A DNA stretch of 42,239 nucleotides, from the UHGV virus genome UHGV-0380056; one strand, written 5' to 3'. Shown one piece after another: positions 3,887 through 38,963 of the stretch (position 1 is its first letter; each line of letters opens with the position of its first letter). The stretch comes from a virus. The notes beneath the pieces are model-generated. The model did no database searches, had not been told where the DNA came from, and saw only the letters and a program-made list of their open reading frames with translations. The position numbers and the translations under genes are program-made.

Positions 3887-4432
3887 TTACACCTCCTTAT
3901 ATTTGAATATGTAGCCTTTTGTTTGCTTATAATTTCCGAGTAGGACTTGCCGTATGCCAGAAGGGTTTATTTTTAATCTCCTACCGCATTCATTAATACT
4001 ACGATACTCATTATACTCACCGTTTGCAATATCTATTGCAATAATGCTATTACTATTTTGAGTTTTACGTTGTGTAATTGATCGTCTATATAATGACGTA
4101 CCGTGATTAATATTTTCCTTAGATGTGACCCATTCTAAATTATCTAATGAATTATTTGTTTTATCCTCGTCAACGTGGTTTACTTGTGGTTTGTTTTCAG
4201 GATTTGGGATAAATGCTTCTGCTACTAAGCGGTGGATAGGTCGTTTTCTTTTTACACCGTTATTTGATAAGTGTACTCTTAAGTACCCATCCTTAGTTGG
4301 TATGGGTTTAAGTATCCGTTCAACTCTTAAGTTTCCTCTGCTATCATATCGTAGAAGTGCTTTAACTCTCCCAGTATTACTCACCTGATAAAGTCATTCA
4401 TATCCTTTAATATCTTTCCAAATTTCTTCCAT
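3887..4432 (-). CDS. HNH homing endonuclease (NUMOD4 + HNH_3) with an in-frame TGA at 4394..4396; the 165-aa ORF restarts at GTG 4384
   Basis: A strong AGGAGG ribosome-binding site precedes ATG 4432, giving [12 protein letters not shown], then TGA, then [11 protein letters not shown].... Its paralogues here read [27 protein letters not shown]_3 motif: [41 protein letters not shown]. Confidence 0.75.
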
Positions 4433-4488
4433 AGATAAAACCTCCTCTTTTATACTATTATAATAGCACACATAAAGGAGGTTGTCAA

Positions 4489-4674
4489 CTATTTTTGTTC
4501 GTCCGTCAATTCGATGATCTCGTAGTGACGATTACGTCCACCTAATTTCGTTTTAACATCCTTAAAATATCCACGCTTCTTTCCATAAAACTCATCAGCT
4601 TGAAATTGTGATTTAAACTTACGTGTTTGTCCTGTTGCCAAATCTTTCACGTACACTGGTTTTGGTGCAGGCAT
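4489..4674 (-). CDS. hypothetical protein (61 aa)
   Basis: ORF with a GGGAGG ribosome-binding site, downstream of a TGATATAAT extended -10 at about 4727..4737 on the minus strand. Confidence 0.45.
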   Translation of the reverse strand: MPAPKPVYVKDLATGQTRKFKSQFQADEFYGKKRGYFKDVKTKLGGRNRHYEIIELTDEQK

Positions 4675-4744
4675 TTATTCTACCTCCCTTATTGTATTGT
4701 TGAGCTAAAAGCTAACTCCCTTATACTTATAATTATATCATATA

Positions 4745-4776
4745 AAAAGAACCCTGTGTACAGAAACCAGGGTTCA
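4745..4776 (-). terminator. rho-independent terminator (minus strand)
   Basis: gaaccctg-gtttctgtaca-cagggttc hairpin, followed on the minus strand by a T5 run. Confidence 0.5.
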
Positions 4777-5013
4777 ATCTTGGTTATAGGGGGAACAATC
4801 GTATAAGTGAAATAACATACTATATATAGTATGAATCCTTGATTTTCAACACAAGAAACCAGATTTAAATCACGTTTACGAGGGGAAAATGACGTTTTTA
4901 AAAGTTGGTTTTGGGACTTTCATGCTAAGAAGAGACCTCAGCGATCCTGCTCCATGAAAAAGGTACGCCCCGTTAAAATATTTTACGCTGGTTAGAAAAT
5001 ATTTCTGGCTGAC
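4777..5013. other. ORF-free region between the packaging HNH and the terminase genes; candidate cos / terminase-recognition region
   Basis: No ORF on either strand. Contains an 18-bp perfect palindrome (4816..4833) and an imperfect 20-nt direct repeat ACA(G)AAACCAG..TT.AAATC at about 4758 and 4849. Sits in the HNH-cos-TerS position typical of HK97-like phages. Confidence 0.35.
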
Positions 5014-5403
5014 CTAAAAATTCTTGCCTCCAGTTTTCCAGCTGTAGCGATGTTCTTCTTTGTTATGACAGCTGTAACAGATTGATTCTAAATTATTCAT
5101 ATCTAATCTGTGTTCCCATCCATTTGGACTTCTTAGTTCAATAATATGATGAACCATGTCTGCTCTGGTTAACCTACCTTCATTGGCACATACCTCACAT
5201 AGAGGTGACTGCATAAGCTTAGCCTTACGAGTCTTACTCCATTGTGTGGATTTATAGAACGCATTATACTTAGCATTGAAGTCGTTACTCCTTACATGTT
5301 TATTGTACTGCTTATCTGATAAGCCTGAGTGCTTAGCACAATAGGTAGCTGGTAACTGCACTCTCTCTCTACACATTGGCGCTCCACATATTCGTTGTGG
5401 CAT
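5014..5403 (-). CDS. packaging-associated HNH endonuclease (HK97-type, needed with terminase for cos cleavage)
   Basis: C..C plus an HNH core: CEVCANEGRLTRADMVHHIIELRSPNGWEHRLDMNNLESICYSCHNKEEH. Located next to the terminase module. Confidence 0.8.
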   Translation of the reverse strand: MPQRICGAPMCRERVQLPATYCAKHSGLSDKQYNKHVRSNDFNAKYNAFYKSTQWSKTRKAKLMQSPLCEVCANEGRLTRADMVHHIIELRSPNGWEHRLDMNNLESICYSCHNKEEHRYSWKTGGKNF

Positions 5404-5450
5404 TATACTTACTCCTTTCTTCTATTATATAGTATAAGAAAAGACTACTA

Positions 5451-5654
5451 TTATTTAGTAGTCTTCTTTGTTTTACCTTTAGGTTCAATGATGTCTAAGA
5501 GTCCTTTGTCTTCTAACACCTGACGAGCAACCTTACTTGTATCTACGTTAAGTGTTAGGTCTGATGCTTTCTTAGGTGTATGGTTAATACAATACTTATC
5601 TGGTAGCTTAACTGTTTCATTACAGCCAGTGTGATTGCAGTACATATATGCCAT
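5451..5654 (-). CDS. small zinc-finger protein, a paralogue of the N-terminus of the HNH at 5014..5403
   Basis: YCNHTGCNETVKLPDKYCINHT aligns with ICGAPMCRERVQLPATYCAKHS of the HNH. Confidence 0.5.
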   Translation of the reverse strand: MAYMYCNHTGCNETVKLPDKYCINHTPKKASDLTLNVDTSKVARQVLEDKGLLDIIEPKGKTKKTTK

Positions 5655-5719
5655 TTATAATCCAACCTCCTTTAGTTTAATAGTTATACCATATAATTCA
5701 GTCATGGATAGCATTCCGT

Positions 5720-7931: not shown

Positions 7932-8014
7932 CTTTTGTACTACTAACTAAGTGTAACAATCAAACTAACAAAAAGTAAGCTTAGTAGTGTAATCATAACA
8001 GATGAGGAAATAAA

Positions 8015-8329
8015 ATGTTAAACGTAAAAGAAGGACAAACATATGTTTGTACAAAATCAGATAGACCATGGTGGACTAAAGGTGAGGAGTATGAAGTAGT
8101 ATTAAACAAGTATGGAGAATTGTGTTTCGTTGATGATGATGGAGGTAAATGGGTGATTCAATTCTGGAAGGATATTGGCGATTACTTTAAATTAAAAGAG
8201 ACGCAATCAAACACTGTAGAACCCAAGGATACACCATTTGACGTTACTAAAGTAATTCTAAAATCTTATCAACGGTATGACAATGACGCACAACGCTTGG
8301 CATATATCAAAGGATACTTTGCAAAATAA
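8015..8329 (+). CDS. hypothetical protein (104 aa)
   Basis: ORF with a GAGGAA ribosome-binding site. Confidence 0.45.
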   Translation: MLNVKEGQTYVCTKSDRPWWTKGEEYEVVLNKYGELCFVDDDGGKWVIQFWKDIGDYFKLKETQSNTVEPKDTPFDVTKVILKSYQRYDNDAQRLAYIKGYFAK

Positions 8330-8348
8330 AGAGGAGGATGATAAAATA

Positions 8349-8525
8349 ATGTACACTATTATAGTAACCAAATACAACGGCGGCGATGGTATCACAGAAA
8401 CAGAATATAACTATATTGATAAATATAAGATTACAGACGATTTTCTAATTCTGGAAGATTCTAAAATGGGTGTTTTACACTATATCACAAAGGATCAAGT
8501 GTTAGAATTTGAAGTGAATTGGTAA
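8349..8525 (+). CDS. hypothetical protein (58 aa)
   Basis: GAGGAGG ribosome-binding site immediately before ATG 8349; the longer ORF-track form has no RBS. Confidence 0.4.
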   Translation: MYTIIVTKYNGGDGITETEYNYIDKYKITDDFLILEDSKMGVLHYITKDQVLEFEVNW

Positions 8526-8551
8526 ATATAAAACGATAGGATGACTAAATA

Positions 8552-8731
8552 ATGAACTCAAACCAACTAATTACATTAACTAGAATTGATGAAACTACAG
8601 TATATGTAAACATTAATCACATTGCTGCATTCTATCACAACAAAGCTTGGGAATACACTATTGTTATCCTGTCAGATGGTACTCAATTAGACATAAAGGA
8701 TTCAGTAGAATCAATTAATAAATATTTTTAA
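8552..8731 (+). CDS. hypothetical protein (59 aa)
   Basis: ORF with a weak ribosome-binding site. Confidence 0.3.
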   Translation: MNSNQLITLTRIDETTVYVNINHIAAFYHNKAWEYTIVILSDGTQLDIKDSVESINKYF

Positions 8732-8737
8732 TGAAAA

Positions 8738-8770
8738 AGTATAGCACAAATAAAAAGTTTGTGCTATACT
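8738..8770 (+). promoter_or_regulatory. 13-bp inverted repeat AGTATAGCACAAA-N7-TTTGTGCTATACT embedding an extended -10 (TGcTATACT) for the HNH gene
   Basis: Perfect complementarity of 8738..8750 with 8758..8770. TATACT at 8765..8770, followed by the conserved leader aggtacataaataagagagg. Confidence 0.45.
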
Positions 8771-8799
8771 AGGTACATAAATAAGAGAGGAAGATTGAA

Positions 8800-9309
8800 A
8801 TGGAAGAGATTTGGAAAGATATTAAAGAATATGAAGGACTATATCAAGTAAGTAACTTGGGGAGAGTTAAGAGAGTTACAACAGGTAGAATTTTGAAAGG
8901 TAGTAAAGATAGAGGTGGGTATCTAGTAGTTAATTTATCTAAAAACAATAGTGGTTCTATGAAGAAAATTCATCGCCTAGTAGCTCAAGCGTTCATACCA
9001 AACCCAGAAAACAAAGCAGAGATTAATCATATAGACGAAGATAAGACAAACAACATGCTTTCAAATTTAGACTGGATGACGAGAAAAGAAAATAATAATC
9101 ACGGAACTAGAACAGACAGAATGGCTAAAACGCGAAGTATTCCAATCATTGCAATCAATCTAAAAACGAATGAATCTACAGAGTTCTATGGAGCTAGTGA
9201 ATGCGCTAGAAAACTAGGGTTACATCAACCAAGCATTACACATGTACTAAACGGCAGACGTAAACAAACTGGTGGATACACGTTTAAATATAAGGAGGAG
9301 CGGAAATAA
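8800..9309 (+). CDS. HNH homing endonuclease (NUMOD4 + HNH_3 + C-terminal DNA-binding module)
   Basis: [25 protein letters not shown]; [42 protein letters not shown]; C-terminal [13 protein letters not shown]. Confidence 0.85.
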   Translation: MEEIWKDIKEYEGLYQVSNLGRVKRVTTGRILKGSKDRGGYLVVNLSKNNSGSMKKIHRLVAQAFIPNPENKAEINHIDEDKTNNMLSNLDWMTRKENNNHGTRTDRMAKTRSIPIIAINLKTNESTEFYGASECARKLGLHQPSITHVLNGRRKQTGGYTFKYKEERK

Positions 9310-10895
9310 TGAATGAACTAACGAAAATTGACTATTCAGCACCAGTTGAAGAGTTACTACCAGTTTCAAATAAAAACTTTCCAAGTGAGGAGTTTGTGGA
9401 TTTCAAATCAGAGCTAGGACGAATGTACTATGGAGGAAAAGACGGCACACAACCAAAATTTGAGATTCAACAGGAATTATTTATTGATAAATTTAACCAA
9501 CTAGCATATGTGTACGCTCACCCTAACTTAAACGCGCCATACGTATACAATGCAGACACACGTATCTGGTCTGAGGTAAATCTAGGTAGTTACAAATATT
9601 CAGATTGGTATTTTGAGAACATTTTATCACCAAAATTCACACCACAATTCAGAAACCCAGAGTTTGGGAATGAAATTCGTAAGGAAATGAAGAAATTAGC
9701 ACCTGAATTGGCTAATCGCTCTATGACACGTGGAGAACAGGCACCACTAGGTGACAACCCTAACCCTAACATTATCGCATTTGAGAATGGCACGTATGAC
9801 TTTAAAACAAATGACATTCGTGAAACAAGGTTGGAAGATTATCATACACTTCAACTACCATATCCTTTAATTAAGACAGATGAAACAGATGAATTACTAG
9901 CTAAACAATGGATTGATTATTTGCTGAAAGACCAAGCCCAGACATTATATGAGTATATTGGGTACATGTATTATAGAGAGTACAAATATCAATCTATTTT
10001 ATACCTATTAGGTAATGGTTCAAATGGTAAATCTTACGTTGGGGGGTTTATCATGAACAAATTAATTGGGTTCAAAAACAGTTCAGCAGTTGGCCTAGAC
10101 AATTTAGCAGATAAGAGCAACCGTTTTGATAAAGCTTCATTACACCATAAATTATTGAACTTTGAAGCTGATTCAAGTGCAAACTTTGTAAAAGGTACTG
10201 AGACACTGAAAAAACTTTCAGGTGGTCTTGATGCTGTTCACGCTGAGAAAAAAGGAAAAGATGCGTTTAGTTTTACCAATTATGCAAAACTAATGTTCTC
10301 AATGAATGAGCTGCCAGCCTTTAACGACCGCACAAATGGATGGTATAGACGTATTCTTATCCTAAACTTTAACACTAATCTTGATACACCAGAAGCACGT
10401 GAACGCATTAATGAGTTCAACAAACAACGTGAGGAACGTGAGTCAAAAGAGCAACTAGGTAAATTTGCATGGTTCTGTATTCAACAATTTAAAAAGATTT
10501 TAGACGCTGGTACAAATGGTGAAAACCCATTCACAGAGACAGAAGATATGATTGCCTTCAAGAAAGCTTACATTGAATCAAATGACCCATCTAAAGAGTT
10601 TTTGAGTGAAGTACCTGTCATTGTGGAAGATGAAGAAGGAACCGTTAACCTAACACTATTGAAGAATATTTTTAACGTGTACACGAAAGAGAATAATATT
10701 AATAAGTCAATGAACTGGCGCACCATGAAAGAATTATTATTGAAGCAAGGCTTTGAGGAAAAACGGACAAGTAAAGCACGAGTACTAACTGGTCTAAAGA
10801 TTGCACGTAATGGAGATGCTGACGCGGTTAAACCTTATCTAATGAACGCACTAGCAGGGACAGAGTATGTAAATATTTTCAATGATGTAGAATAG
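9309..10895 (+). CDS. DNA primase-helicase (D5 N-terminal / P4-type SF3 ATPase)
   Basis: Walker A YLLGNGSNGKSY, with a downstream Walker B / D5-like region. Confidence 0.7.
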   Translation: MNELTKIDYSAPVEELLPVSNKNFPSEEFVDFKSELGRMYYGGKDGTQPKFEIQQELFIDKFNQLAYVYAHPNLNAPYVYNADTRIWSEVNLGSYKYSDWYFENILSPKFTPQFRNPEFGNEIRKEMKKLAPELANRSMTRGEQAPLGDNPNPNIIAFENGTYDFKTNDIRETRLEDYHTLQLPYPLIKTDETDELLAKQWIDYLLKDQAQTLYEYIGYMYYREYKYQSILYLLGNGSNGKSYVGGFIMNKLIGFKNSSAVGLDNLADKSNRFDKASLHHKLLNFEADSSANFVKGTETLKKLSGGLDAVHAEKKGKDAFSFTNYAKLMFSMNELPAFNDRTNGWYRRILILNFNTNLDTPEARERINEFNKQREERESKEQLGKFAWFCIQQFKKILDAGTNGENPFTETEDMIAFKKAYIESNDPSKEFLSEVPVIVEDEEGTVNLTLLKNIFNVYTKENNINKSMNWRTMKELLLKQGFEEKRTSKARVLTGLKIARNGDADAVKPYLMNALAGTEYVNIFNDVE

Positions 10896-10907
10896 GAGAT
10901 TTTATTT

Positions 10908-11405
10908 ATGAAAGAAATTTGGAAAGATATTGAAGGATATGAAGGAGTTTATCATGTGAGTAACTTAGGACGAGTGAAGAGAGTTGCAACAAATAGAGTT
11001 TTACAACCATATAGAAACAAAGTTGGCTATTTACTAGTTTATTTATGTAAAAACGGTAAGCGTAAAACTCATAGAATCCACCGTTTAGTAGCACAATCTT
11101 TCATACCAAACCCAGAAAATAAACCAGAAGTTAATCACCTAGACGAAAATAAGATTAATAACATGGTTTCAAATCTAGAATGGTCAACTAGAAAAGAAAA
11201 CTGTAACTATGGAACACGTAATGAAAGACTTAGTATCCCAATTATAGCAACTAAGCTAAAGACTGGTGAATCTAGAGAGTTCTATGGAACTAATGAATGT
11301 GCTAGAAAACTAGCGTTAAATAATGCACACATTACAAGTGTTCTAAAAGGTAGATTGAAACAAACAGGTGGATACACATTCCAATATAAGGAGGAAGAAG
11401 GATGA
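10908..11405 (+). CDS. HNH homing endonuclease (NUMOD4 + HNH_3)
   Basis: MKEIWKDIEGYEGVYHVSNLGRVKRV; [28 protein letters not shown]; C-terminal KQTGGYTFQYKEEEG. Confidence 0.85.
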   Translation: MKEIWKDIEGYEGVYHVSNLGRVKRVATNRVLQPYRNKVGYLLVYLCKNGKRKTHRIHRLVAQSFIPNPENKPEVNHLDENKINNMVSNLEWSTRKENCNYGTRNERLSIPIIATKLKTGESREFYGTNECARKLALNNAHITSVLKGRLKQTGGYTFQYKEEEG

Positions 11406-11626
11406 ACAAATATTATGTATACACAGTAAATAGTGATGAACCATTTGTGGTAAGGACAACAAATGACTTACAACAAAACTATATATCTGCCATTGTTGAA
11501 ACAAACGGAGTAGGTACTTGGCGTTTTGAGTATGAAGGAGAGGAAAAACCAGGTAGAACACCAACCAGGTATGACAGTGTGTTTAGCTTAGAACATATTG
11601 TATCTATTGTAAAAATAATTGAATAA
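11402..11626 (+). CDS. hypothetical protein (74 aa)
   Basis: ORF whose Shine-Dalgarno is provided by the HNH 3' end (tataaggaggaagaaggATG). Confidence 0.45.
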   Translation: MNKYYVYTVNSDEPFVVRTTNDLQQNYISAIVETNGVGTWRFEYEGEEKPGRTPTRYDSVFSLEHIVSIVKIIE

Positions 11627-11640
11627 TTTTAAACTTTACC

Positions 11641-11669
11641 CTTGACTTATTGTTGAGGGTATTGTATTA
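11641..11669 (+). promoter_or_regulatory. consensus promoter TTGACT-17-TATTAT
   Basis: TTGACT at 11641..11646, TATTAT at 11664..11669. Confidence 0.5.
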
Positions 11670-11699
11670 TATAAATATAGAGATGAGGGAGGACTTAAA

Positions 11700-11897
11700 A
11701 TGAAATTACATGAATTAACAAAACAATATGAAGATTTAAGAACTGAAGCAGAAATGTTGGAATCATGGATAGTGTATGCAGATTCAATTGAATTAAATGC
11801 CTTGGGAAATGAATTAGAAGACAGACTTGACAAAGTTGAAAGTCTAATGTATGTTGTAAATACACAAATTAAGAAATTGGAGGTTCACAACCAATGA
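11700..11897 (+). CDS. hypothetical coiled-coil protein (65 aa)
   Basis: ORF with a GGGAGG ribosome-binding site. Confidence 0.45.
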   Translation: MKLHELTKQYEDLRTEAEMLESWIVYADSIELNALGNELEDRLDKVESLMYVVNTQIKKLEVHNQ

Positions 11898-11987
11898 CAG
11901 TTACAATTGCAAGTTTATTATTTATGGGTGCAGCACTAACAAGTATTGCAGTACTACTTAAATGGCTAGAAGAAGGAGGATATTAAA

Positions 11988-12170
11988 ATGTATACTGTTG
12001 GTAGAGATCCAGAGCACACTTATGCTATTGAAGTATTGAACGATAAAGGAGAATGGGTAAGGGATATGTATGATGTGCCTATAGATATATATAGCATACA
12101 GAAGCTGGCTCAACATTATAAATTACGAGGATACACACTAAAACAAATTAGAATAGTGAAGGTGATTTAA
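11988..12170 (+). CDS. hypothetical protein (60 aa)
   Basis: ORF with a GGAGGA ribosome-binding site. Confidence 0.4.
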   Translation: MYTVGRDPEHTYAIEVLNDKGEWVRDMYDVPIDIYSIQKLAQHYKLRGYTLKQIRIVKVI

Positions 12171-12171
12171 G

Positions 12172-12387
12172 ATGGATAAATTGAATTACAGAAAAGATCT
12201 AACAACAGAAACGAATGAGCACGTGAGTGTTGGAACGTATGACAACGATAGTGATATTTACATTAGATTACTAGACGATGAAGATGATTGTGCCCTTGTA
12301 ACACTAACTCTGAAAGAGGCACAACGTGTGAAGCGCTATTTATCAGAAGCTATTACAACTAATAAGATGAATTGGGAGGAAGAATGA
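12172..12387 (+). CDS. hypothetical protein (71 aa)
   Basis: ORF with a ribosome-binding site. Confidence 0.4.
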   Translation: MDKLNYRKDLTTETNEHVSVGTYDNDSDIYIRLLDDEDDCALVTLTLKEAQRVKRYLSEAITTNKMNWEEE

Positions 12388-12737
12388 TGAAGGAAGCACA
12401 GTTTTCAAGAGAAGTAACACAGTATTTAGAGAGTAAAGGAGCAATAGTTAATAACCAAACAGGTAGCATGTTTTCTAAAGTTGGTGTATCTGACTTGTTA
12501 GTTTGCTACAAAGGTTACTTTATTGCGTTAGAATTGAAAACTGGTAGATATACCGCAGATCCGTTGCAAATTAGTTACTTACAAAACGTAAGAGAAGCTG
12601 GAGGGTTTGGATTGATTCTGCGAGATACTATTCAAGAGTTAATGGTGTTATTATCTTGTATTGATAATGGAATTGAACGTCAGTACGAGCAACCAGAATT
12701 GCCAGAAATTGAGATTGATAAAATCATATTTGATTAA
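12384..12737 (+). CDS. VRR-NUC domain nuclease (PD-(D/E)xK fold)
   Basis: GVSDLLVCYKGYFIALELKT, i.e. the D...E.K catalytic motif. GGGAGG ribosome-binding site. Confidence 0.65.
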   Translation: MMKEAQFSREVTQYLESKGAIVNNQTGSMFSKVGVSDLLVCYKGYFIALELKTGRYTADPLQISYLQNVREAGGFGLILRDTIQELMVLLSCIDNGIERQYEQPELPEIEIDKIIFD

Positions 12738-12787
12738 TGTGTCAAGATGATAAAAGTTATGGTATACTATAATAAAGGAGTGATACA

Positions 12788-13477
12788 ATGTATATAGTAT
12801 ATTTACATGTTAACAGAGTAAACAATAAAAAATATTTTGGAATAACGTCACAAAATCCACTGAAGAGATGGAATAATGGAAAAAATTATAGTAGTAAGCA
12901 TTTTAAAAACTCAATATTAAAATATGGGTGGGAAAATTTCAATCACTTTATTATAAAATAAGGATTAACAAAAACGGAGGCGTGTCTACTAGAGATTAAG
13001 TTGATTAATAAATATAATACTACAGACCAGCAATATGGATATAACATATCTGTAGGAGGTGACTGTCCAGCAAGAGGTATGAAACATTCCAAAGAATTTA
13101 AAGAGCAACAGAGTGTACGTAGTAAAAATATAAATTGGACATTAGAAAAGAGGAGTAATATCAGTAAAGGTCTTAGAAATCACTATTTAATGCATGAGTC
13201 ACCATTAAAAGGTAGACCTCAGTCATCTGAACACATTAAGGCTAGAAGCGAGGCACTACGTGGTAGAAAAATATCAGTTGATACACGAGATAAAATATCT
13301 AAAACATTAGGTGGGAGATTATTCAAAGCTACTAATATTGAAACAGGAGAGGTGATATATAGTCACAATCAAACGGCAACAGCTAAAAAGCTTAATGTGC
13401 GTAGAACAGGGCTGAGAAGATGTTTAAACAACGAGCAAAAACAAACAGGGGGCTACACTTTTGAATATGCAAAATAA
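12788..13477 (+). pseudogene. GIY-YIG homing endonuclease interrupted by an in-frame TAA (12959..12961). The N-terminal GIY-YIG fragment is 12788..12961; the remainder is the TTG-start ORF 13001..13477
   Basis: The N-terminal fragment reads MYIVYLHVNRVNNKKYFGIT...KYGWENFNHFIIK, then a stop, then GLTKTEACLLEIKLINKYNTTDQQYGYNISVGG. This is colinear with the intact GIY-YIG at 38358..38915 (YGWDNFNHFIIVDKLTKDEADSLEIKLIQAYDTTTTGYNICHGG). The C-terminal module ends QKQTGGYTFEYAK, like the HNH family. Confidence 0.7.
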
Positions 13478-14771: not shown

Positions 14772-14784
14772 TCATGCTATACTT
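14755..14784 (+). promoter_or_regulatory. consensus promoter TTGACA-17-TATACT whose spacer and -10 form a 9-bp inverted repeat (AAGTATAGC-N7-GCTATACTT)
   Basis: TTGACA at 14755..14760 (inside the end of the helicase CDS). TATACT at 14778..14783, followed by the conserved leader ttgtacataaataagaggagg. Confidence 0.5.
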
Positions 14785-14815
14785 TGTACATAAATAAGAG
14801 GAGGTATTAAATACT

Positions 14816-15352
14816 ATGGAGGAACAGTGGAAAGATATACCGTTATTAAGTAGATATCAAATAAGTAGCTTGGGTAGAGTTAAATCAAAACAAAGAACTA
14901 CTAAATGCAACAAAGGGGTTATAAATAGAAAAGAAAGACTTATGACACCTCAATTAAGAGGTAAAAAAGGGTATGAATATGAGTGTATTAGATTGAAAAC
15001 AGATTTAGGATATACCAAATATTACAGTATCCATCGTCTAGTAGCTCAAGCATTCATACCAAATCCTGAAAACAAACCAACAGTAGACCATATCAATCGT
15101 GATAGGCTAGATAATAGGGTTAAAAATTTAAGATGGGCAACATATGAGGAACAGCAGTCTAATAAAATAGTTTCAACAGGACAAGCAAAGATACCTGTAA
15201 AAGCTATTGATAAATCAGGTAATGTATATTATTATGATGGTGTTATAGAAGCATCAAAAGCGTTGGATGTTGACACTGGAACAATATGTAAAGTACTATC
15301 TAATAAGTATATTAATAAAACAGGTGGAGGTTATTATTTTGAAAAAAATTAA
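14816..15352 (+). CDS. HNH homing endonuclease (HNH_3)
   Basis: [38 protein letters not shown]-terminus ...[10 protein letters not shown]. Confidence 0.8.
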   Translation: MEEQWKDIPLLSRYQISSLGRVKSKQRTTKCNKGVINRKERLMTPQLRGKKGYEYECIRLKTDLGYTKYYSIHRLVAQAFIPNPENKPTVDHINRDRLDNRVKNLRWATYEEQQSNKIVSTGQAKIPVKAIDKSGNVYYYDGVIEASKALDVDTGTICKVLSNKYINKTGGGYYFEKN

Positions 15353-16088: not shown

Positions 16089-16578
16089 AGGATATGAAGG
16101 TAGATATGAGGTTAGTAACTTAGGTAGAGTTAGAAGTTTAAATTACAATAACCAAAAAGGAAATATAAAAGTTAGACCAAGTGTTCCTCATAAACATGGG
16201 TATAGACAAATTAAACTAGGTAATAAAAGCAAATTAATCCACCGTCTAGTAGCAGAAGCATTTATCCCAAACCATGAAAATAAACCTTGTGTTAATCATC
16301 TGGACGAGGATAAGACAAATAATAGAGTTGATAACTTAGAATGGGTAACAAAGAAAGAAAATAACAATTATGGTACTAAGAATATTAGAAGCGCATACAA
16401 GAATAAATACATTTCTGGAAACTTCAAATCCGTAAGTTGCTCAAATGGAGTAGAGTATTTTAGTGTGTCAGAAGCTTGTCGTCAATTAGATTTAGACCCA
16501 AGTACTGTCGTAAAAATTCTAAAAGGTACACGTAAAAGTACTAGAGGCTACACCTTTAAATATAAGGAGGAAGAGTGA
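16042..16578 (+). CDS. HNH homing endonuclease (NUMOD4 + HNH_3)
   Basis: [21 protein letters not shown]; [28 protein letters not shown]; C-terminal [12 protein letters not shown]. Confidence 0.85.
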
Positions 16579-21014: not shown

Positions 21015-21018
21015 AATA

Positions 21019-30106: not shown

Positions 30107-33100
30107 TTATAGATAGTTTTGTGTAATCTCTGCTGTTACCTCTGCCATGTTAGCCCAACCTGAAACAATTGGTTGAATAATTGTTTCACCAGTTTCAAGC
30201 TCAAATTTTTCCCACTGATTACCTACTACATTCAATTGATTGTTAACTACGCCATTGACAAAAAACTCTCTAGTTGATGTATCAATCTCAACGAGGTCAC
30301 CATCTTGGAAATAGTTCTTCAAGTCTTGATAATATGGTGTTCCTTCCCAACGTGCTTGTATGTCAGTCAGTCTCATGATCACATGATATTCTTTTGAGTA
30401 ACGCATAACCCAAGCTCCTGATTTTGTAAACTTACTTGTATCTGGTTCTGGTAATGTCCATGTAAACTTATATTCCTTGTCAATAGATGCCACAGACCAA
30501 CCGTTTGGATTCATACCTAATTGTTTAATTTGAACCATTCTCCATACTAGTTTATTACCTCGTCTATCCATGTTCATTTCATAGAAGGTATTCCAGAATA
30601 TCTTTCTATCTAATTTTTGCTGATGTAACTTCTTATTCTTATACCACGCTTCGAATATTAGTTCATTGGATGCGTGGTCACTATCCCTAATGATGGCTGT
30701 CATAATAGGGTTACCATTTTCATCAAAGGTGGCAAACTCAATTCGTCCACGCTGCCCCTTATTATAGTTATCAAATACAAAACGATAATGATTGGAAATT
30801 GGTAATGTTCTATCGTTATTAGATGGTGCTTGAATATTCGCCACAATGCTTGGTCCATGCCAGACGTTGATAGAACCAACCCCTGTAAATATTGGTGTAA
30901 CCGCATCCGGATCTGGTTTCATATCCCATGTACCTTGCACTAAGTTTGGTGTAGCTGAGTTATTATTCATATTTGGATATACTGATTTGAAACCACTATT
31001 TAACTGCAGTGTGGGAGTGAGTGTATTGCCCCAAAAGTTTTCATCAAGTCCTTGCTCTACTCTGGAAGAGGTTGTTCCGTCCACATCTTCAGGGTTACCA
31101 AACTGCAAGATAGCTCCATTTTGATTCAACAGAGCAATTAGTCCATTTTCTCCTTTCATTCTGAATGAAAAGCGTGGCTTCGTTCTGTAAGTCCCATTGT
31201 TTTCAATCTTAACCAAGTCACCAACAGAATCCCCACTTGGTACATATTCAACTGCGTTGATATAGGAAGGACTATAACCCCAGTGATAATCTTTTGGATT
31301 ATTTGATGGTGCTGGTGCGATTCCTTCATATTTGTAGTAAGGTATATTTGGTGTGCGTGTGTCACCTTTTTCAATTTTGAGCCATTCTATCATACAGGCT
31401 CCTACCGTTTCACGTGGTATTTGATAAATAGTAAGTAATTTTGGTGATGTGGTGGAAACTTTTGTAGGAGTAAAACTACAAATCCACACATCTGTTAACC
31501 CCTCAACTGGTGCAAAATATCCTAGTGGCGTGTTACCATCATTGTACAGTCTGAACGTTTGAGTTGATGGTTTAGTGGCTTTTATCGTGATAGTATACTT
31601 TTGACCTATCTTAAATTCTTCTAACATATTTGAACCATACAACTGATATGCACTGGTTTGTATTGGAAATTTTAATGTCTGATCAGCAATATTCTCACCC
31701 AACGGTATTTTACTTAAATAATAAGGATGCTCAAGTAAGTTTGGCTGGTACGGTGTGGCTGTAGTTCCTTCTTCTAATTTGATATTAGGTTTAATGTAAA
31801 TTTTAGAAGCTGTAACATCAGTTTTAGTTACATATATTTGTAATGCTTGTACTTCAGAATTTACTTTAACTTCTGTTAATGGGTTAGTTACTAGATTATA
31901 TCGTCTGTTTGTGGTTGTTAATGAAGTTATTGAAGATGTGGTTACAACACTTAATGATGTACCAACATATACCACTGGGCTGATGGCAATGCCACCTGTA
32001 TCTACATCAGACCTCGCCTCAATGGAATATGTGTATCGTTTACCCACCATTCCTCTTGGGATATTTATAAAGTAGTATCCTTGATTACCTGTTAAAGTGG
32101 CTGTATCTATCACATATTCTCCGTTAACAAACGACACATTTGATGGTTTTGTATATTTTTTGAAATCAAGCGACAATTCATCTGAACCAATATTTCTGAA
32201 TAAATTCGGATTTCCCGAATAATCATAGTTCCCAAAATCAATGCTATCACTATACGCCTTTGCTCCCACAGTTGGCGCTGTCACTACTGACCCAAGTGGT
32301 GGTAGAAAACTAACCATTGGTTTACTCCAGTTAATAAGAGTGCTTCCTCTGAAACCATACTGTAAGTTAAGAGCATTTGTTTTTTCGTTTTCAATCTTAA
32401 CTACTGACCCATACTCCGTAAACTCAGTATTCACTTTTTTAGGGATAGTAACAAAGTGTCTATTAAGTCTTGCACCCTTCACTGTATCCCACTCTTCTAG
32501 TACTACTTGTCCAGCATATGTTTTGTCGTTTGATTCATCAATGGATAATACTTTTGCAAATACGCTAAAATTGACCTCGTCTCCAACTTTCAAGTCTGCT
32601 CTATGAATCAGTGTGCTAGAGTTTAAGTTTAGCCAACGCTCATCTGAATTTTTGTCATGCTCAAAATTTAACGGAACACCATTTGTGAAATCACCTTGAA
32701 CAATACTAGAGTTATTGAACTTCTCATCTAACTTCTTGACCCAAGGTTTCATATATTTATTAATAGCATTATACTCACTATCTAGCATAAGATTGGTGGT
32801 GGTTGAGTAGGTGTTGGAAAAACCAATTGACTCAATAGCATGTGACATTCCGTCTGGAACGTCAAACGTTAATGTGAGTGGTGTGTACTTCAAATCTGTT
32901 GCATCATATTCTTCAGCTCCTGTAAAGATAGCATTGAAATATCTATCTGGAAAAATGTCAAACACTAACTTCTGAGGTTCGTCACTATTGACTAACGCTT
33001 TTAGTTCATCCATCACTTGCGGAACTGTTTTACCTGTATTGTCTTTGATAATAAATCCATCAATACTTAATGTGTAATCTCCTAATCTTGTATTTCTAAA

Positions 33101-33317: not shown

Positions 33318-36300
33318 CTAAACTAATCCCAAATCACGATTAGCATTTAGTTGATTCCTTGATTGAATCTTTTGCAGTTTGCTATTTAACTTCTCACCAT
33401 CCAGTAATACATTAGTGTCTTTAGCTAAAATAGCCATCAATAGCTCATTCTGTTGTTTTAACAGTAGAAGTATTTGCGCCATATCAGAGTTTGTGCTTGA
33501 AGTCGTACCAGATACTGGTGTTGACTGGCTACGATTTAGCTTCTCATTAGCATATGCTAGTAGTTGCATAGCTCTTGAACGCTTAAGTCCTGAACCAGTG
33601 AGCGGAATTACAACTTCTTCTTTATTGCCTTCGCCAACCATTGCCATGTGTTGCTTAGTAATTATGCCACCATTTTCATAACCAACTCCACGATATGCTG
33701 CTCCTAGACTACCATATCTTGAAAGTGCATATCTGATTGAAGCTAAGATATTAGATAATGGATCATATATATTACTGTTGTGTCCTGGCATTGCATACTG
33801 TCTAAATGTTGGATCAATTACTTGTAGTAGACCTTTTGAAGGTGTACCATTCTTGGCATTGATATCCCAGTTGTTTATTGCGTTAGGATTACCATTTGAC
33901 TCTGTTCGCATTTGGTTAAGTAATGCATTTAGATTGCTTGCTGAGTATTGACCCGTCATTCTAAGAGCTTGTGTTGCGATACCTCTCCAACGGTCTACAC
34001 CACTTCCCCCTACGCTATCACCTGAAATTTGAGTGTTTTGTGGGTCTTTCACACCGTTTAAATGGACATGATCATAATGATCTCCATCAGGCCACGGTCT
34101 CCAATCATTATGAATACCTGTACCTGATTGTCCTGAACGGTCACGAACTTTACCATTAGTGATTACGTAACCAATCTTAGATGCAAATTTATCAAACGCA
34201 TAGTTTGCAGCTTCTGTGTATTTACTTGACCCACCAGTAACTCCTGGTAAAGCAATATCAATTGCGTTACGTTTACCATGTGAATATGGGTCGCCTGGTC
34301 TATAACCACTAGTTGCCACAAAACCTGGGAATTTCTTCATTACTGATTTAGCAACATCTGCTAAATATTTATAGACACCATTGGTTCCTATAGAGGTATC
34401 TAAGTTACCAGATGAGAACAAATCAGTAATCTTTTCAGTCAGAGCGCTTGTTGCTTTAGATAGAATACCTTTACCTACTTCTAATGGATATTTTGTCAAC
34501 CCACCTAATACATCTAAGCCACCTATTACTTTTCTAGCCAATGCCGCTGGGTCTGAAATGAAGTCCCACACATCACCTACTACGTTTTTAAGTGTGTTTC
34601 CTACATTACCAGCAACATTTTTCACACTGTTCCACATATTACCAAAGAAGTTAGTACCTTTTTTGTAACGGTATTTAGGCGCTTTTGAACCTTGAAGTTG
34701 GGCTGTTTCTTCAGCTGTCAAGACATGTGTGCCTTTTGGTGCATTCAATACTACGTTACGTCCTTTAGGTATGAATGCTCTACCATCTGGTGTGATAACT
34801 GTTTCTGCTCCACGTCCATCATTGACCATCATTGGTCCATTAATTGGGTGTCCGCCTGCGGGTGTACCTGTAGCGTATTGTGGTACATCCCATTCGGTTA
34901 GAGGTTCTGCGCCTAATTTTTCAAGAACCCATGATGCGCCTTTGATGATACCATTCACTGGTTTACCAATGGCTTTTAGTGCGCCGTTAAATACACCTTT
35001 GAATGCGTTTGTAACTGCATTTTTACCATTTGAAATAGCTGTTCCTATTTTGGTAGGCAAGTCTTTCATCCAGTTCACAACGGTGTCAATGCCGTCGCTG
35101 AATGACTTCTTGATTCCTGTCCATGTTTCTGTCACTGCTCGTGATACATTAGTTTTTATTTCTCCAAATTTGTTCCACACGTTGACCGCCCACCCTGAGA
35201 TTTTACCCCAAAGCCATGACATTACGGCCCACCAATCTTTAAAACCTTGAACTAGTCCATCTATGATTGGTTTAACAATAAACCATACTGTCTGAAATGC
35301 TGCATTGACTATTCTTCTAAAAGTTTCAGATTTTGTATAAGCTACTACTAACGCTCCAACCAATGCGCCTAATGCTACAACTAATCCTCCTACTGTGAGA
35401 GATATAGTCGTAAATACAATTGAGGCTATACCTAGCGCTTTAATCGCAAGTGTTATCCCACCTATGATACCTACAAGCCATGTTAGTGGCTCTCTGTTAT
35501 CTGCAATCCATTTGGCAAATTCTCCTAATTTACCCATGAAATCTGCCATTTTTGGAATTGCTTCTTCTATTTTTGTACTTAATGTATTGATAAACCCAGT
35601 GATGTTTTCAACGCCTATTTTTTCTATAATGCCTTGAATTGCGGTGACTACTGTAGACTTCAATCTATCCCATGAGCCACCTAAAGTATCTGTTGATTTA
35701 GCGGCTTCAATCGCTCCAGGATTCATACCTAATTCAGTAATGGCTGCATTGAATTCATCAGCAGATATTTCGCCTTTTTCCATTGCTTCACGGAAGTTCC
35801 CAGTGTATGCTCCATTTGTTAACATAGCTTCTTGTAGTAGTCCTGAAGCCCCTGGGATTGCGTCTGCTAACTGATTCCAGTTTTCAGTCGTTAGTTTACC
35901 CGCTCCTGCTGTTTGCGTTAACATCATAGCCACAGACTTAAATGTTTCCTCTGATCCACCTGCTACCGCATTCAAGTTACCTGCTGCTTCTGTTAGTTGC
36001 ATGTAGTTTGGAATACCGTTTGAAGCTAACTGCGCTGAGGTATTCAGAATATCTTCTAATCCATAGACAGTAACATCTGCGTATCCTTTCATCTGTGCGG
36101 TGGCTTTTTCTATTTCTTCTCCACCAAATCCTGCAAAATCCATGCTCTTTTTAAACTTAGAAACAGAGTCTGTAGCAGTGATTGCCTCACGTGTCATGTC
36201 GCCTATGAAACCAGTGACTCTAGATATGGCGCCACTGGCTAAATTACCTAGCGTTGTACCAATAGCATGTCCAACTGTTGAAAAACCTTTCATTGATTTT

Positions 36301-36995
36301 TCCGCTTTATCTACTCCTGATGATAATGCATCCAACTGTGAATCTACTATTTTTGACTGTCTACCAAATTCTTGAAGTTTATTTTCTGCCTTTTCCACCT
36401 GAGGTGAAGCTTGTCCAAACTCTTTACTCATTAAATCTACGGCTGTTTTCTGAGCTACAATTGCTTTTTCAGTTAATTCAGATTGTGTTTTTAATCCACG
36501 CTGTTTAGCGTTAAATGCGCCTACTTTATCTCCAACACTATTGAATGCTTTAATTTCATCATTCATAGCTTTTTCATTATCTTTTAATGCTTGGGTATAT
36601 TTGTCTACACCAGACTCTGCTAAAATGTAAGCTTGCTTAGTAGATGTTAACTCTTTTGAATATTTATTATATTTTGCACTTGCATCATTGATTTGTTTGG
36701 TTACATTTGATACTTGCTTAGATTCTTTTCCATAAGTGTTAATGTAATCTTCTCTACGTTGTTCAAGTATTTGCACTTTTTTTGCTTGAAGTTCTGTAGT
36801 AGTTGTCAAGTCTCTTTGCTTCTGTGCAAGATCACTCATACTGTTAGAGCCTTTTTCCATTGCTGAAATATTGGTCTTCATTGCTGATTCTGTTTGTTTA
36901 ATTGCTCTGTTCAGCTTATCCAATGTGTTTATAGATTCGTCTAGTCCGTCAAATCCAATACCAAACTTCATATTACCAACGGGTCTATCTGCCAT
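33318..36995 (-). CDS. tape measure protein with C-terminal M15 peptidase and lytic transglycosylase (SLT) domains
   Basis: 1225 aa with long coiled coils and transmembrane segments. M15-like SGYRPGDPYSHGKRNAIDIA...DHYDHVHLNG. SLT TESNGNPNAINNWDINAKNGTPSKGLLQV. Confidence 0.85.
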   Translation of the reverse strand: MADRPVGNMKFGIGFDGLDESINTLDKLNRAIKQTESAMKTNISAMEKGSNSMSDLAQKQRDLTTTTELQAKKVQILEQRREDYINTYGKESKQVSNVTKQINDASAKYNKYSKELTSTKQAYILAESGVDKYTQALKDNEKAMNDEIKAFNSVGDKVGAFNAKQRGLKTQSELTEKAIVAQKTAVDLMSKEFGQASPQVEKAENKLQEFGRQSKIVDSQLDALSSGVDKAEKSMKGFSTVGHAIGTTLGNLASGAISRVTGFIGDMTREAITATDSVSKFKKSMDFAGFGGEEIEKATAQMKGYADVTVYGLEDILNTSAQLASNGIPNYMQLTEAAGNLNAVAGGSEETFKSVAMMLTQTAGAGKLTTENWNQLADAIPGASGLLQEAMLTNGAYTGNFREAMEKGEISADEFNAAITELGMNPGAIEAAKSTDTLGGSWDRLKSTVVTAIQGIIEKIGVENITGFINTLSTKIEEAIPKMADFMGKLGEFAKWIADNREPLTWLVGIIGGITLAIKALGIASIVFTTISLTVGGLVVALGALVGALVVAYTKSETFRRIVNAAFQTVWFIVKPIIDGLVQGFKDWWAVMSWLWGKISGWAVNVWNKFGEIKTNVSRAVTETWTGIKKSFSDGIDTVVNWMKDLPTKIGTAISNGKNAVTNAFKGVFNGALKAIGKPVNGIIKGASWVLEKLGAEPLTEWDVPQYATGTPAGGHPINGPMMVNDGRGAETVITPDGRAFIPKGRNVVLNAPKGTHVLTAEETAQLQGSKAPKYRYKKGTNFFGNMWNSVKNVAGNVGNTLKNVVGDVWDFISDPAALARKVIGGLDVLGGLTKYPLEVGKGILSKATSALTEKITDLFSSGNLDTSIGTNGVYKYLADVAKSVMKKFPGFVATSGYRPGDPYSHGKRNAIDIALPGVTGGSSKYTEAANYAFDKFASKIGYVITNGKVRDRSGQSGTGIHNDWRPWPDGDHYDHVHLNGVKDPQNTQISGDSVGGSGVDRWRGIATQALRMTGQYSASNLNALLNQMRTESNGNPNAINNWDINAKNGTPSKGLLQVIDPTFRQYAMPGHNSNIYDPLSNILASIRYALSRYGSLGAAYRGVGYENGGIITKQHMAMVGEGNKEEVVIPLTGSGLKRSRAMQLLAYANEKLNRSQSTPVSGTTSSTNSDMAQILLLLKQQNELLMAILAKDTNVLLDGEKLNSKLQKIQSRNQLNANRDLGLV

Positions 36996-37062
36996 TAATC
37001 ATTCACTCCTTTGTGTACTTTATGTATCTATTATAACATAAAAAAAGACACCTTAGGATTCC

Positions 37063-37622
37063 CTAAAGTGCTTCTCCCTTAGCTTTGGCAAGCTCTGCTG
37101 GATTCATAAATGTACCAAAGAAGTCCATTGCATCTTGCTTCTTCTCTTTCTTTGGTTTGCTGTCTTTCGTAAACAGCTCCATTAATAAATTATAATCTGC
37201 GTTGTTAATCTCTGATAGAGACCATACTCCTGACTCGCTGGATAGAAGGTCAGTATACATTTTATCCAGTGCTTCAAGGTGTTCCTCCCAGCTTATTTCT
37301 GAGAGGTCTTTTTCTCCTTTTTTGCTTGTGCTGCTTCTCCACCGCCAATTGCATTAAATACTCCACCAAGCACTTCTTCTAACTTATCTGCATCAACGCC
37401 ATCAATGATTGTGTCAAAGTTTACTTCTGGATTGTCAAATACATCAGCCACTAACATAATCATTGTGTCAATTTGTTCTAATTCTGTCATTTGTTCTTCG
37501 CCAGATTGTACTTTTTCCATGCGTGCTTGGAATTTTAACATTTCTCGCATTGATCGCACTTTAATTGATTTTTGTTTAAATTCCTTTTGTTTTCCATCAA
37601 TTTCTAATTTTAATGTAATCAT
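37063..37622 (-). CDS. tail assembly chaperone G-T fusion, made by -1 programmed frameshift at A_AAA_AAG (37327..37333)
   Basis: G ends ...GGEAAQAKKEKKTSQK*. The slippery heptamer gcA AAA AAG lies in the zero frame. The -1 frame reads ...KRRKRPLRNKLGGTP*SPG... into MYTDLLSSESGV. Confidence 0.6.
37293..37622 (-). CDS. tail assembly chaperone G
   Basis: 109 aa, between the major tail and tape measure genes. Confidence 0.65.
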   Translation of the reverse strand: MITLKLEIDGKQKEFKQKSIKVRSMREMLKFQARMEKVQSGEEQMTELEQIDTMIMLVADVFDNPEVNFDTIIDGVDADKLEEVLGGVFNAIGGGEAAQAKKEKKTSQK

Positions 37623-37690
37623 CTTAAATCCTCCAATAGTTTTATTTGTCTACTAATTTAGTATAGCATATAATCCCTTATTTGTGGATA

Positions 37691-37720
37691 ATAAAAAACC
37701 TAACCAATTAAGGTTAGGTT
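37691..37720 (-). terminator. rho-independent terminator after the major tail protein gene
   Basis: Minus strand aacctaacc-ttaatt-ggttaggtt followed by tttttt. Confidence 0.65.
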
Positions 37721-37726
37721 AATTCA

Positions 37727-38296
37727 TCAACCGCTAACAACGTTATTTACTTTGTCAACGAATTTATCCAACGTAACTGTATCTGATTCTACAGCATGCA
37801 TGAATGCAATACCACGTGAGTCTGTTACAAATGAACCTTCAATAGATTCAGTGCCTGGCTCTGTTCCGCCTGATTCAGTTGTTGCAAGGTTCATTTCTGG
37901 ATGACTGAAACGTCCTTTTGTTAGACCTAGAAATACATCTTTACCTTCTGGATTACTTGAAACAAACACCACTGACACATATGGTGCTTCTGTGTCTTCT
38001 CCAACTGAGGCAATCCCATCAGGATCACGAGTAATACCTAAAACCTTTTCATAAACACCATTTTTGTAAAGGTCAAACACGTTAAGTGTTGCTTGAACTT
38101 CACCAACACCTTTAGCTGACACCCAAATTGGTACATTAGATGCATACACTGTTGTTTGTTCTGGTGAAATACCTGTAATACTTGACTCAATAGTACCTCC
38201 ACCTGTTTTATCAATTGTTAACTTTTCAATTACGCCCTCAGCGTTTTTTACACTGATGATTGCTTTTTCGAATCCGATTAAAGCGATAATAATCAC
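37727..38296 (-). CDS. major tail protein
   Basis: 189 aa, upstream of G/GT, followed by a terminator. Confidence 0.7.
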   Translation of the reverse strand: MIIIALIGFEKAIISVKNAEGVIEKLTIDKTGGGTIESSITGISPEQTTVYASNVPIWVSAKGVGEVQATLNVFDLYKNGVYEKVLGITRDPDGIASVGEDTEAPYVSVVFVSSNPEGKDVFLGLTKGRFSHPEMNLATTESGGTEPGTESIEGSFVTDSRGIAFMHAVESDTVTLDKFVDKVNNVVSG

Positions 38297-38357
38297 GTCC
38301 TTTGATTTATTTTTATTACTAAAGTAATTATATCATAAATAAGCCACGGTGTGTTGA

Positions 38358-38915
38358 CTAACAAATATAGTTAAAGGTACATTTGTTATGTGTCTTTCGC
38401 TGACCGTTTAGACATTTGTTAATATGTCCTTTATCAAAACCAAGCTCGTTTGAAATGTCTGATACTAGCTGATAATTACGTGTATTACCATCATAAAATG
38501 TGACGCCAATATGTTTGTATTTAAACCCTAACATTGTCTCTGCTTTTATTTTCTGAATTTCTTTTGAGAAAACTTGGCTTTTTCTGCATTCACGTATTTT
38601 TTGCTTTGCTTCTACACTATGTCTTCTACCCCGCATAACACCTGCTCCTCCGTGACAAATATTATATCCTGTTGTTGTAGTATCGTACGCTTGGATTAGT
38701 TTTATTTCTAATGAGTCAGCCTCGTCTTTGGTTAGTTTATCTACTATAATAAAATGATTAAAGTTATCCCATCCGTATTTCTTGATTGCTCTATAAAAAT
38801 GTTTTGAGTTTGAATATGTTGAGCCATTACCCCATCTATCAGAAACTTTTTGACATGTTTGTCCAACATATTTTTTACCATTAATTTTATTTACATGTAA
38901 ATATACTGTATACAT
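38358..38915 (-). CDS. GIY-YIG homing endonuclease (I-TevI-like, with NUMOD3-like linker) inserted in the tail module
   Basis: MYTVYLHVNKINGKKYVGQT...; ...GRRHSVEAKQKIRE. AAGGAGGG ribosome-binding site 6 nt before ATG 38915. The N-terminal extension in the ORF track is the RBS region. Confidence 0.75.
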   Translation of the reverse strand: MYTVYLHVNKINGKKYVGQTCQKVSDRWGNGSTYSNSKHFYRAIKKYGWDNFNHFIIVDKLTKDEADSLEIKLIQAYDTTTTGYNICHGGAGVMRGRRHSVEAKQKIRECRKSQVFSKEIQKIKAETMLGFKYKHIGVTFYDGNTRNYQLVSDISNELGFDKGHINKCLNGQRKTHNKCTFNYIC

Positions 38916-38963
38916 TGAATCCCTCCTTAGTATACAGTATATCATAGTTTTGGCTCTAGTTGG

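Follow-up and report, generated by a model that had tools for sequence, protein, structure and literature searches.

Homing endonuclease-like genes between conserved genes in the Enterococcus siphophage genome UHGV-0380056

Homing endonuclease genes (HEGs) have been described in several phage systems. The closest ones are I-HmuI of Bacillus phage SPO1, the Seg and Mob enzymes of phage T4, the HNH enzymes of the Skunavirus phages, and the HEG islands (Barth, Dunham & Seed 2023, PMC10448857). Homing endonucleases make up 11% of the T4 genome (PMC2988022). The Skunavirus phages, with genomes of 27.5-34 kb, have 1-8 HNH genes at 11 insertion locations, and 56 of their 268 HNH genes (21%) are truncated (PMC12724721). 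Here, the UHGV virus genome UHGV-0380056 was analyzed. This window, the whole stretch of 42,239 nt, is an Enterococcus (faecium-type) siphophage genome, in which a rightward replication module is flanked by leftward structural and packaging genes. A sequence-only reading by a model had described seven NUMOD4/HNH_3 and two GIY-YIG genes in the window, and nine endonuclease-like loci were found at the positions it gave. The analyses suggest that eight free-standing homing endonuclease cassettes (six I-HmuI-like, two GIY-YIG) very probably colonized this phage, and that the ninth locus is a domesticated core gene.

In GenBank, the closest records are those of the E. faecium phages vB_Efm3_KEN20, KEN18, EF36P2, Bp29, DELF1, BUCT630, and IME-EFm5. 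Their nucleotide identity to the window is about 81-86% over 30-65% of the length, which makes the window a new species-level member of a known, unclassified phage group. Eleven related whole genomes were used for comparison.

Domain content and site occupancy

Domain calls were based on the Pfam gathering thresholds, and two genes with in-frame stop codons (H1 and G1) were scored with the stop masked. Six HNH genes contain NUMOD4, HNH_3, and I-HmuI_NUMOD-like matches, all above threshold. H1 (3887-4432, minus strand) lies upstream of TerS in the direction of transcription; its matches are NUMOD4 (4e-15), HNH_3 (1.5e-10), and I-HmuI_NUMOD-like (2e-13). The other five are on the plus strand, and their open reading frames (ORFs) are intact: H2 (8800-9309) is located between the host promoter and Shine-Dalgarno (SD) sequence and the primase start; H3 (10908-11405) directly behind the primase gene; H4 (14816-15352) between the helicase and PrimPol; H5 (16042-16578) at the end of PrimPol, with its 5' end overlapping the last 47 nt of that gene; and H7 (21106-21639) downstream of the phrog_6479 gene. 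In the window, EF36P2, and IME-EFm1, PrimPol overlaps the 5' end of the H5-type cassette with its last 15 codons. H7 aligns end to end with I-HmuI (PDB 1U3E; E=2.9e-25, residues 5-174). The catalytic His (equivalent to H75 of I-HmuI) is kept in all six copies. At the D74 position, H4 has D and the other five copies have N; at the N96 position, H4 has Q, and N is again found in the other five. H1 contains an in-frame TGA (4394-4396), which corresponds to a GGA>TGA change relative to the BUCT630 orthologue (83% amino acid identity), where the codon is read through. H1 is likely a recent pseudogene.

Both GIY-YIG genes are above the PF01541 threshold (33.1 and 33.3 bits, cut-off 22.6). G1 (12788-13477, plus strand; GIY-YIG 6e-08) is located upstream of the SNF2 helicase. 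An in-frame TAA (12959-12961) divides it into 57 and 158 codons, and splits the GIY-YIG domain between the Arg and Glu motifs. The stop is a GAA>TAA change relative to the intact 229-residue orthologues in Bp29, DELF1, and BUCT630. G2 (38358-38915, minus strand) is an intact cassette flanked by the genes for the tail terminator and the major tail protein (MTP). It has GIY-YIG (7e-08) and I-HmuI_NUMOD-like (2e-07) matches, and the motif residues TVY…YVG…DRW…LE…GYN can be read in its sequence. Both GIY-YIG enzymes carry a C-terminal helix-turn-helix of the same type as the HNH genes. A sequence comparison with the PDB gave no match (E<=1) for the GIY-YIG protein. Overall, two of the eight cassettes are interrupted by nonsense codons, and six ORFs (five HNH and G2) are intact; thus, seven plus two functional genes was an overstatement, since the reported H1 and G1 spans run across stop codons. 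No suppressor tRNA able to read through the two stops was found in the phage, which has no tRNA genes. A six-frame scan with hidden Markov models built from the paralogues detected no additional copies or remnants in the window beyond the nine loci.

Occupancy was scored by locating the two conserved genes that flank each locus in each of the 11 relatives. The sites were labeled A (H1), B (H2), C (H3), D (G1), E (H4), F (H5), H (H7), and I (G2). The sequence-only reading had proposed a comparison with phages lacking the insertions. At identical intergenic sites, all eight cassettes are polymorphic for presence or absence, site by site; the remaining locus, H6, is not. IME-EFm5 lacks all eight. 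Site A (between TerS and the phrog_10805 gene) is filled in seven relatives; it has 13 nt in IME-EFm5 and IME-EFm1, and 307 nt with another ORF in Bp29/DELF1. Sites B (before the primase) and C (after the primase) are filled in KEN20/18 only. Site B has 67-75 nt in six relatives and is not scorable in dArtagnan, LG62, and IME-EFm1; site C has 14-15 nt in six. Site D (before the helicase) contains a GIY-YIG gene in Bp29, DELF1, and BUCT630, an HNH gene instead in EF36P2, dArtagnan, KEN21, LG62, and IME-EFm1, and neither in KEN20/18 and IME-EFm5. Site F (after PrimPol) is filled in KEN20/18, and has a different HNH gene in Bp29/DELF1 and a remnant in BUCT630. It is reduced to 2-21 nt in three relatives, holds a small ORF within 175-212 nt in IME-EFm5 and KEN21, and is not scorable in dArtagnan. 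Site H (after the phrog_6479 gene) is filled in four relatives; it has 85-92 nt in five, and 339 nt with another ORF in Bp29/DELF1.

The remaining two sites are occupied in none of the 11 relatives: site E (between the helicase and PrimPol) contains no endonuclease gene in any of them, and site I (between the tail terminator and MTP) has 64-66 nt in all 11. The closest homologue of H4 (62.6% amino acid identity) is directly upstream of PrimPol in the Efquatrovirus LY0322. The closest homologues of G2 (54-56%) are at the same tail terminator/MTP site in the Efquatrovirus phages KEN02 and KEN07. On these matches, H4 and G2 appear to be site-specific lineages common to another genus (Efquatrovirus). 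Independent in-frame stops or splits were observed in the H1 orthologue of BUCT630 (30561-31103) and the G2 orthologue of KEN07 (1798-2353; split), which indicates that cassette decay recurs across the group.

At site D, the end of G1 (13440-13477) and the unrelated HNH genes of the relatives have nearly the same codons (…GGY(T/V)FEYAK and stop). The 3' junction is fixed at the nucleotide level, whichever nuclease class is present. A shared C-terminal DNA-binding domain of the alternating GIY-YIG and HNH enzymes at this helicase site was also considered; the similarity is weak (at best 39% over 64 residues) and barely above that to HNH enzymes of other sites. The …FEYAK tail is better explained by the overlap of these codons with the helicase start.

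The ninth locus, H6 (17317-17790, plus strand), is a degenerate HNH-like ORF, which overlaps the metallo-beta-lactamase-fold (MBL-fold) gene (start near 17768). It had been counted among the seven NUMOD4/HNH_3 genes; unlike the other six, it stays below all Pfam thresholds (NUMOD4 E=0.29; no HNH_3) and matches PHROG 'HNH endonuclease' families only (phrog_959, 1.5e-14). H6 aligns to the HNH fold, with the C-terminal helix-turn-helix replaced by a different, conserved C-terminal region. All three catalytic residues are missing: in the alignment of the window and 10 orthologues (KEN18 not included), the positions equivalent to D74, H75, and N96 of I-HmuI are Y, Y/F, and A/G/S (Y, Y, and A in the window). 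H6 is found in 11/11 relatives at the same position, overlapping or beside the MBL-fold gene. Its ratio of nonsynonymous to synonymous divergence (dN/dS) is 0.04-0.13, compared with 0.03 for the primase and 0.10 for the helicase. The presence in all relatives and the purifying selection indicate a domesticated core gene, not a mobile element. H6 is best described as an apparently ancient HNH-like gene with lost catalysis, kept by selection in the replication module, and is not to be counted in the mobile load. In the Efquatrovirus phages, a normal NUMOD4/HNH gene is annotated beside a beta-lactamase-fold gene.

Insertion junctions and expression signals

Junction alignments with empty-site genomes gave window-only blocks of 505, 494, 535, 471, 539, 603, and 605 nt (site D was not mapped). 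The blocks have about the length of the ORF and no more; those of H2, H4, H7, and G2 are located at 8799-9303, 14806-15340, 21086-21624, and 38360-38964, respectively. Such ORF-sized inserts leave no room for intron RNA. Group I introns and inteins were considered as hosts of the genes and rejected on the basis of these junctions and of zero Rfam matches at the gathering threshold. The flanking genes are full length compared with the relatives lacking the insert. The genes had been described as free-standing, outside introns and inteins, and the three lines of evidence agree with this.

At the six HNH sites, the insert is placed between the host SD and the start codon of the next gene. The host intergenic regions of sites B, E, and H contain a strong promoter-like element and an SD for the downstream essential gene. 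Since the HNH ORF is placed behind the host SD, the cassette is read from the host transcription and translation signals. One promoter-like site (14755-14783, plus strand; TTGACA-17-TGcTATACT) serves PrimPol in the relatives without insert, and now precedes H4. It is the best promoter match in the replication module (8000-22500; 11/12 with TG), and its sequence is identical in the HEG-less dArtagnan, KEN21, and BUCT630. An own promoter in each cassette was considered as well, and is only partly true: the elements preceding H2, H4, and H7 (sites B, E, and H) are host promoters, also found in empty genomes, and only G2 clearly brings its own. G2 is located directly after the stop codon of the tail terminator, upstream of the MTP promoter, and brings its own TGATATACT element and SD. 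This extended -10-like element (38936-38944, minus strand) is inside the G2 cassette and its window-only block. The sequence TGNTATACT is enriched in the window (10 copies, 3 expected), and five copies precede HEGs.

The extended -10 elements before H2 (8738-8770) and H4 (14764-14783) are within inverted repeats (AGTATAGC…GCTATACT). With its 13-bp stem, the repeat at 8738-8770 scored as a terminator-like hairpin of the minus strand. These palindromes are also present in relatives without inserts; they could be operators or combined terminator/promoter elements.

The SD of the displaced gene is located at the very end of the endonuclease gene, within its last codons. In H1, H2, H3, and H5 it has the form …AAATATAAGGAGG…, encoding F/Q-K-Y-K-E (…F-K-Y-K-E-E). 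H7 has AAAGGAG and H4 has GGTGGAGG; behind H4, the PrimPol start appears to be TTG at 15339 instead of the ATG of the relatives. Near the end of H2 is AAGGAGG (9292-9298), followed by the primase ATG at 9309. Among the HNH genes of the 12 genomes, 24/30 have GGAGG or AGGAG within their last 33 nt, compared with 13/57 of the other window genes (p=3e-7). The codons AAG and GAG are in the minority in the window (22% and 27%). The rebuilding of the SD by the cassette end is expected to minimize polar damage.

Site F in two 'empty' genomes retains traces of a cassette. In EF36P2 (about 16786-16803) and IME-EFm1 (about 31711-31731), the first (…EEWRT) and last (FKYKEE…) codons of a cassette are fused, with the sequence …GAATGGCGGACG|(A/T)TTAAATATAAGGAGGA…. 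These fused codons are a deletion scar and show that the cassette was formerly present.

Divergence, kinship, and alternative explanations

Three cassettes are much closer to their counterparts than the adjacent genes are. H3 shares 97-98% amino acid identity with the KEN20/KEN18 copy, and its synonymous divergence (dS) to KEN20 is 0.115, compared with 0.68 for the adjacent primase. H5 shares 95% identity with the KEN20/KEN18 copy (dS 0.138 to KEN20, compared with 0.74 for PrimPol). The dS of G1 to Bp29 is 0.053, compared with 0.325 for the helicase. These values are 3-6 times lower than those of the adjacent genes and indicate recent transfer of the three cassettes. The identity to KEN20 also rises across PrimPol toward H5, from 64% to 95%, a pattern that co-conversion would produce. 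Decoupling from the flanking genes was seen for five cassettes, H3, H5, and G1 (by dS) and H4 and G2 (by homologues in another genus), and not for H1, H2, and H7.

In the homing explanation, architecture, polymorphism, junctions, and divergence pattern are the observed features, and from them we infer cleavage, target sites, and biased inheritance. Following the precedents of I-HmuI and Seg/Mob, the enzyme would nick or cut the cassette-less allele near the site in a co-infecting related phage. Recombinational repair would then use the carrier genome as the template to copy the cassette together with DNA beside it. A cassette behind a host promoter and SD borrows the host signals, and its last codons rebuild the SD for the displaced gene. 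The different states may be read as stages of one life cycle: H3, H5, and G1 would be recent arrivals, H4 and G2 site-specific lineages, and the fresh nonsense mutations of H1 and G1, together with the remnants and the deletion scar in relatives, would represent decay.

The copies were also compared with each other. H1, H4, and H5 each represent a distinct lineage bound to its own site. H2, H3, and H7 form one subfamily, which is found in relatives at six sites (A, B, C, D, H, and TMP/Dit), with amino acid identities of 65-77% whether or not the site is common. The sequence-only reading had proposed long identical stretches among the HNH paralogues as substrates for intragenomic recombination. 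The existence of this subfamily, and exact runs of 20-32 nt in common, might indeed suggest that the paralogues arose by duplication inside the genome and were homogenized or rearranged by recombination. This origin is, however, highly improbable. The quoted 24-mer occurs only once in the window (8992); the longest exact run common to two paralogues is 32 nt (H3-H7), with 8-25 nt for the other pairs, and the pairwise nucleotide identities are 60-77%. The H2, H3, and H7 copies of the window share 66-69% amino acid identity and are no closer than copies in different phages, which argues against recent duplication or gene conversion. Among the copies compared, the closest relatives of H1, H3, H4, H5, and H7 are in another phage at the same site, while H2 is about as close to copies at its own site as to copies at other sites (73-74%). 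The gene order is collinear with all 11 relatives, and recombination between direct copies would delete the primase, the helicase, or PrimPol. Neither the identity runs nor the paralogue comparison gave a signal of gene conversion among the paralogues of the window, and the proposed recombination has left no footprint.

A different departure from classical homing concerns the same subfamily. The H2/H3/H7 type occurs at six or more SD-to-start junctions, with similar divergence within and between sites, which leaves open a spread less bound to the site. For example, such a spread could proceed through recombination or repair at short promoter/SD sequences that are conserved before many genes. 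We consider it improbable that this subfamily spreads and is lost in a less site-bound manner than in classical homing and that, separately, H6 is a domesticated DNA-binding partner or immunity factor, not a relic.

The arrangement of the cassettes around replication genes raises the question of benefit to the phage. The primase is bracketed by H2/H3, the helicase by G1/H4, and PrimPol by H4/H5. The best-match donor switches across H4 (helicase 95% to Bp29, PrimPol 85% to KEN20) and across H1 (TerS 97% to BUCT630, neighbor gene 73%). Bracketing and donor switches fit the HEG-island picture (PMC10448857). The endonucleases might be retained mainly as weapons or helpers of the phage, through marker exclusion, mobilization of the bracketed essential genes as HEG islands, or aid in packaging. 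Such roles are backed by the literature on HEG islands and marker exclusion (PMC10448857, PMC12724721), and the cassette dN/dS of 0.10-0.24 over longer comparisons indicates that the proteins are normally kept functional. However, IME-EFm5 does without all eight cassettes, two copies of the window carry nonsense codons, and relatives have remnants and scars. The packaging-type HNH is a different conserved gene (5014-5403). Retention mainly for such benefits is therefore rather unlikely, although it overlaps with homing and does not exclude it.

The opposite possibility is that most of the set is decaying debris, with relics of little or no activity and an apparent load that is historical. Two of the eight cassettes have nonsense codons, H4 has Gln at the N96 position, and H6 is catalytically dead. 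Broken copies were found in BUCT630 and KEN07, and truncation is also frequent in Skunavirus (56/268 HNH genes, PMC12724721). Nevertheless, six ORFs are full length, with DNA-binding modules above the Pfam thresholds and the catalytic His, and the dN/dS range given above would not be expected of debris. Very recent transfer of H3, H5, and G1 also requires activity in the recent past. It is quite improbable that most of the set is debris.

Several points weigh against colonization by eight homing cassettes. The nonsense codons of H1 and G1 could be sequencing errors, though they are substitutions and not homopolymer indels. H4 may be impaired because of Gln at the metal-binding Asn position. 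The low dS could in principle stem from codon or structural constraint within the cassettes, though this would leave the PrimPol identity gradient unexplained. The 3' SD inside the cassettes partly reflects the tight gene packing of the genome. In addition, the 11 genomes of the comparison set are a subset of about 95 matching records. The homing-endonuclease interpretation holds for eight loci, on the basis of the domains, the polymorphism, the ORF-sized inserts, and the low dS in three of them, and does not hold for H6.

Genome context and comparison with known systems

The neighboring genes had been named correctly: they are TerS, the D5-type primase/helicase, the SNF2 helicase, PrimPol, the tail terminator, and MTP, together with TerL and the MBL-fold hydrolase. 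At its left end (1-80), the window begins shortly behind the 3' end of the portal gene; at its right end (42170-42239), it stops inside the prohead-protease gene. These two genes overlap in the relatives, so the window looks like a circularly permuted genome opened there, and it is complete or nearly complete. A tenth nuclease gene, which the sequence-only reading did not mention, is located in the packaging region (5014-5403, minus strand). It is a classic HNH gene (PF01844; Pfam HNH 4e-10), likely terminase-associated and not a homing enzyme. Annotated HNH genes occupy the equivalent position in the relatives inspected, and this gene is outside the mobile set. A DNA methyltransferase gene (phrog_56, 24857-25624) follows the DNA polymerase. 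It is found in DELF1 and KEN21 and missing from several close relatives; this patchy presence suggests another variable cassette. LG62 (36070-37749) and IME-EFm1 (38650-40329) have a different type of primase elsewhere in the genome, which is 29% identical to the D5-like protein of the window and is a whole-gene replacement within the replication module.

As a compact and well-resolved natural example, one 42-kb phage presents the whole homing-endonuclease cycle, including invasion, transfer, class replacement, nonsense decay, scars, and domestication. IME-EFm5 provides an empty version of every site, and the two genomes are a practical pair for target mapping and the measurement of homing in Enterococcus phages. 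Enterococcus phages are under development for therapy; elements of this kind drive mosaicism and can move the alleles of flanking essential genes in co-infection. The current understanding of homing endonucleases is unchanged.

Together, the nine loci cover 4884 nt (11.56% of the window), in agreement with the earlier estimate of about 11%. The share is 10.4% without H6, and 7.5% for the intact genes only. The window has nine endonuclease-like loci, compared with 1-6 in the relatives. By one common criterion, six I-HmuI-like places were counted in the window and in phiNASRA1, and 1-5 in the other 59 closest Enterococcus records. The load had been called extreme. It is the highest among the 12 genomes, but its share equals the 11% of T4 (PMC2988022), and comparable densities are found in Skunavirus (PMC12724721) and phiNASRA1.

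The HNH genes of the window resemble I-HmuI (PDB 1U3E) in having NUMOD4, HNH_3, and a C-terminal helix-turn-helix. I-HmuI is encoded in an intron, whereas the window copies are outside introns, and position 74 is Asn rather than Asp in five of the six. As in Skunavirus (PMC12724721), the HNH genes are free-standing, variable in number, and concentrated in the replication module, with multiple defined sites and truncated copies. The Skunavirus enzymes cluster by insertion location; in contrast, the H2/H3/H7 type is found at six sites with little site structure. As with Seg and Mob of T4 (PMC2988022), GIY-YIG and HNH enzymes lie between conserved genes and are missing from relatives, and the shares are similar (11% and 11.6%). 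The window genome is four times smaller than that of T4, which gives a higher density (1 per 4.7 kb, compared with 1 per about 11 kb). Unlike those of T4, the HNH genes of the window are I-HmuI-like rather than Mob-like, and mostly use the host-gene promoter and SD instead of their own regulated promoters.

The HEG islands (PMC10448857) also have essential replication genes bracketed by HEGs. In different phages, a cognate site may be occupied by a homologous HEG, by an unrelated one from the same class, or by one from a different class, as is seen at site D with GIY-YIG or HNH. However, the islands of the window are single genes of 0.7-1.6 kb, compared with more than 10 kb, and the primase island is only a little more similar to KEN20 (88% nucleotide identity) than the genome is on average (84%). 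In summary, the load of the window is high for its group, yet it has published precedent, and every feature has a published counterpart. Modestly new are the insertion of nothing but an ORF between SD and start codon, where the last cassette codons rebuild the SD; the subfamily spread over several sites; the deletion scar; and H6, which is catalytically dead yet constrained.

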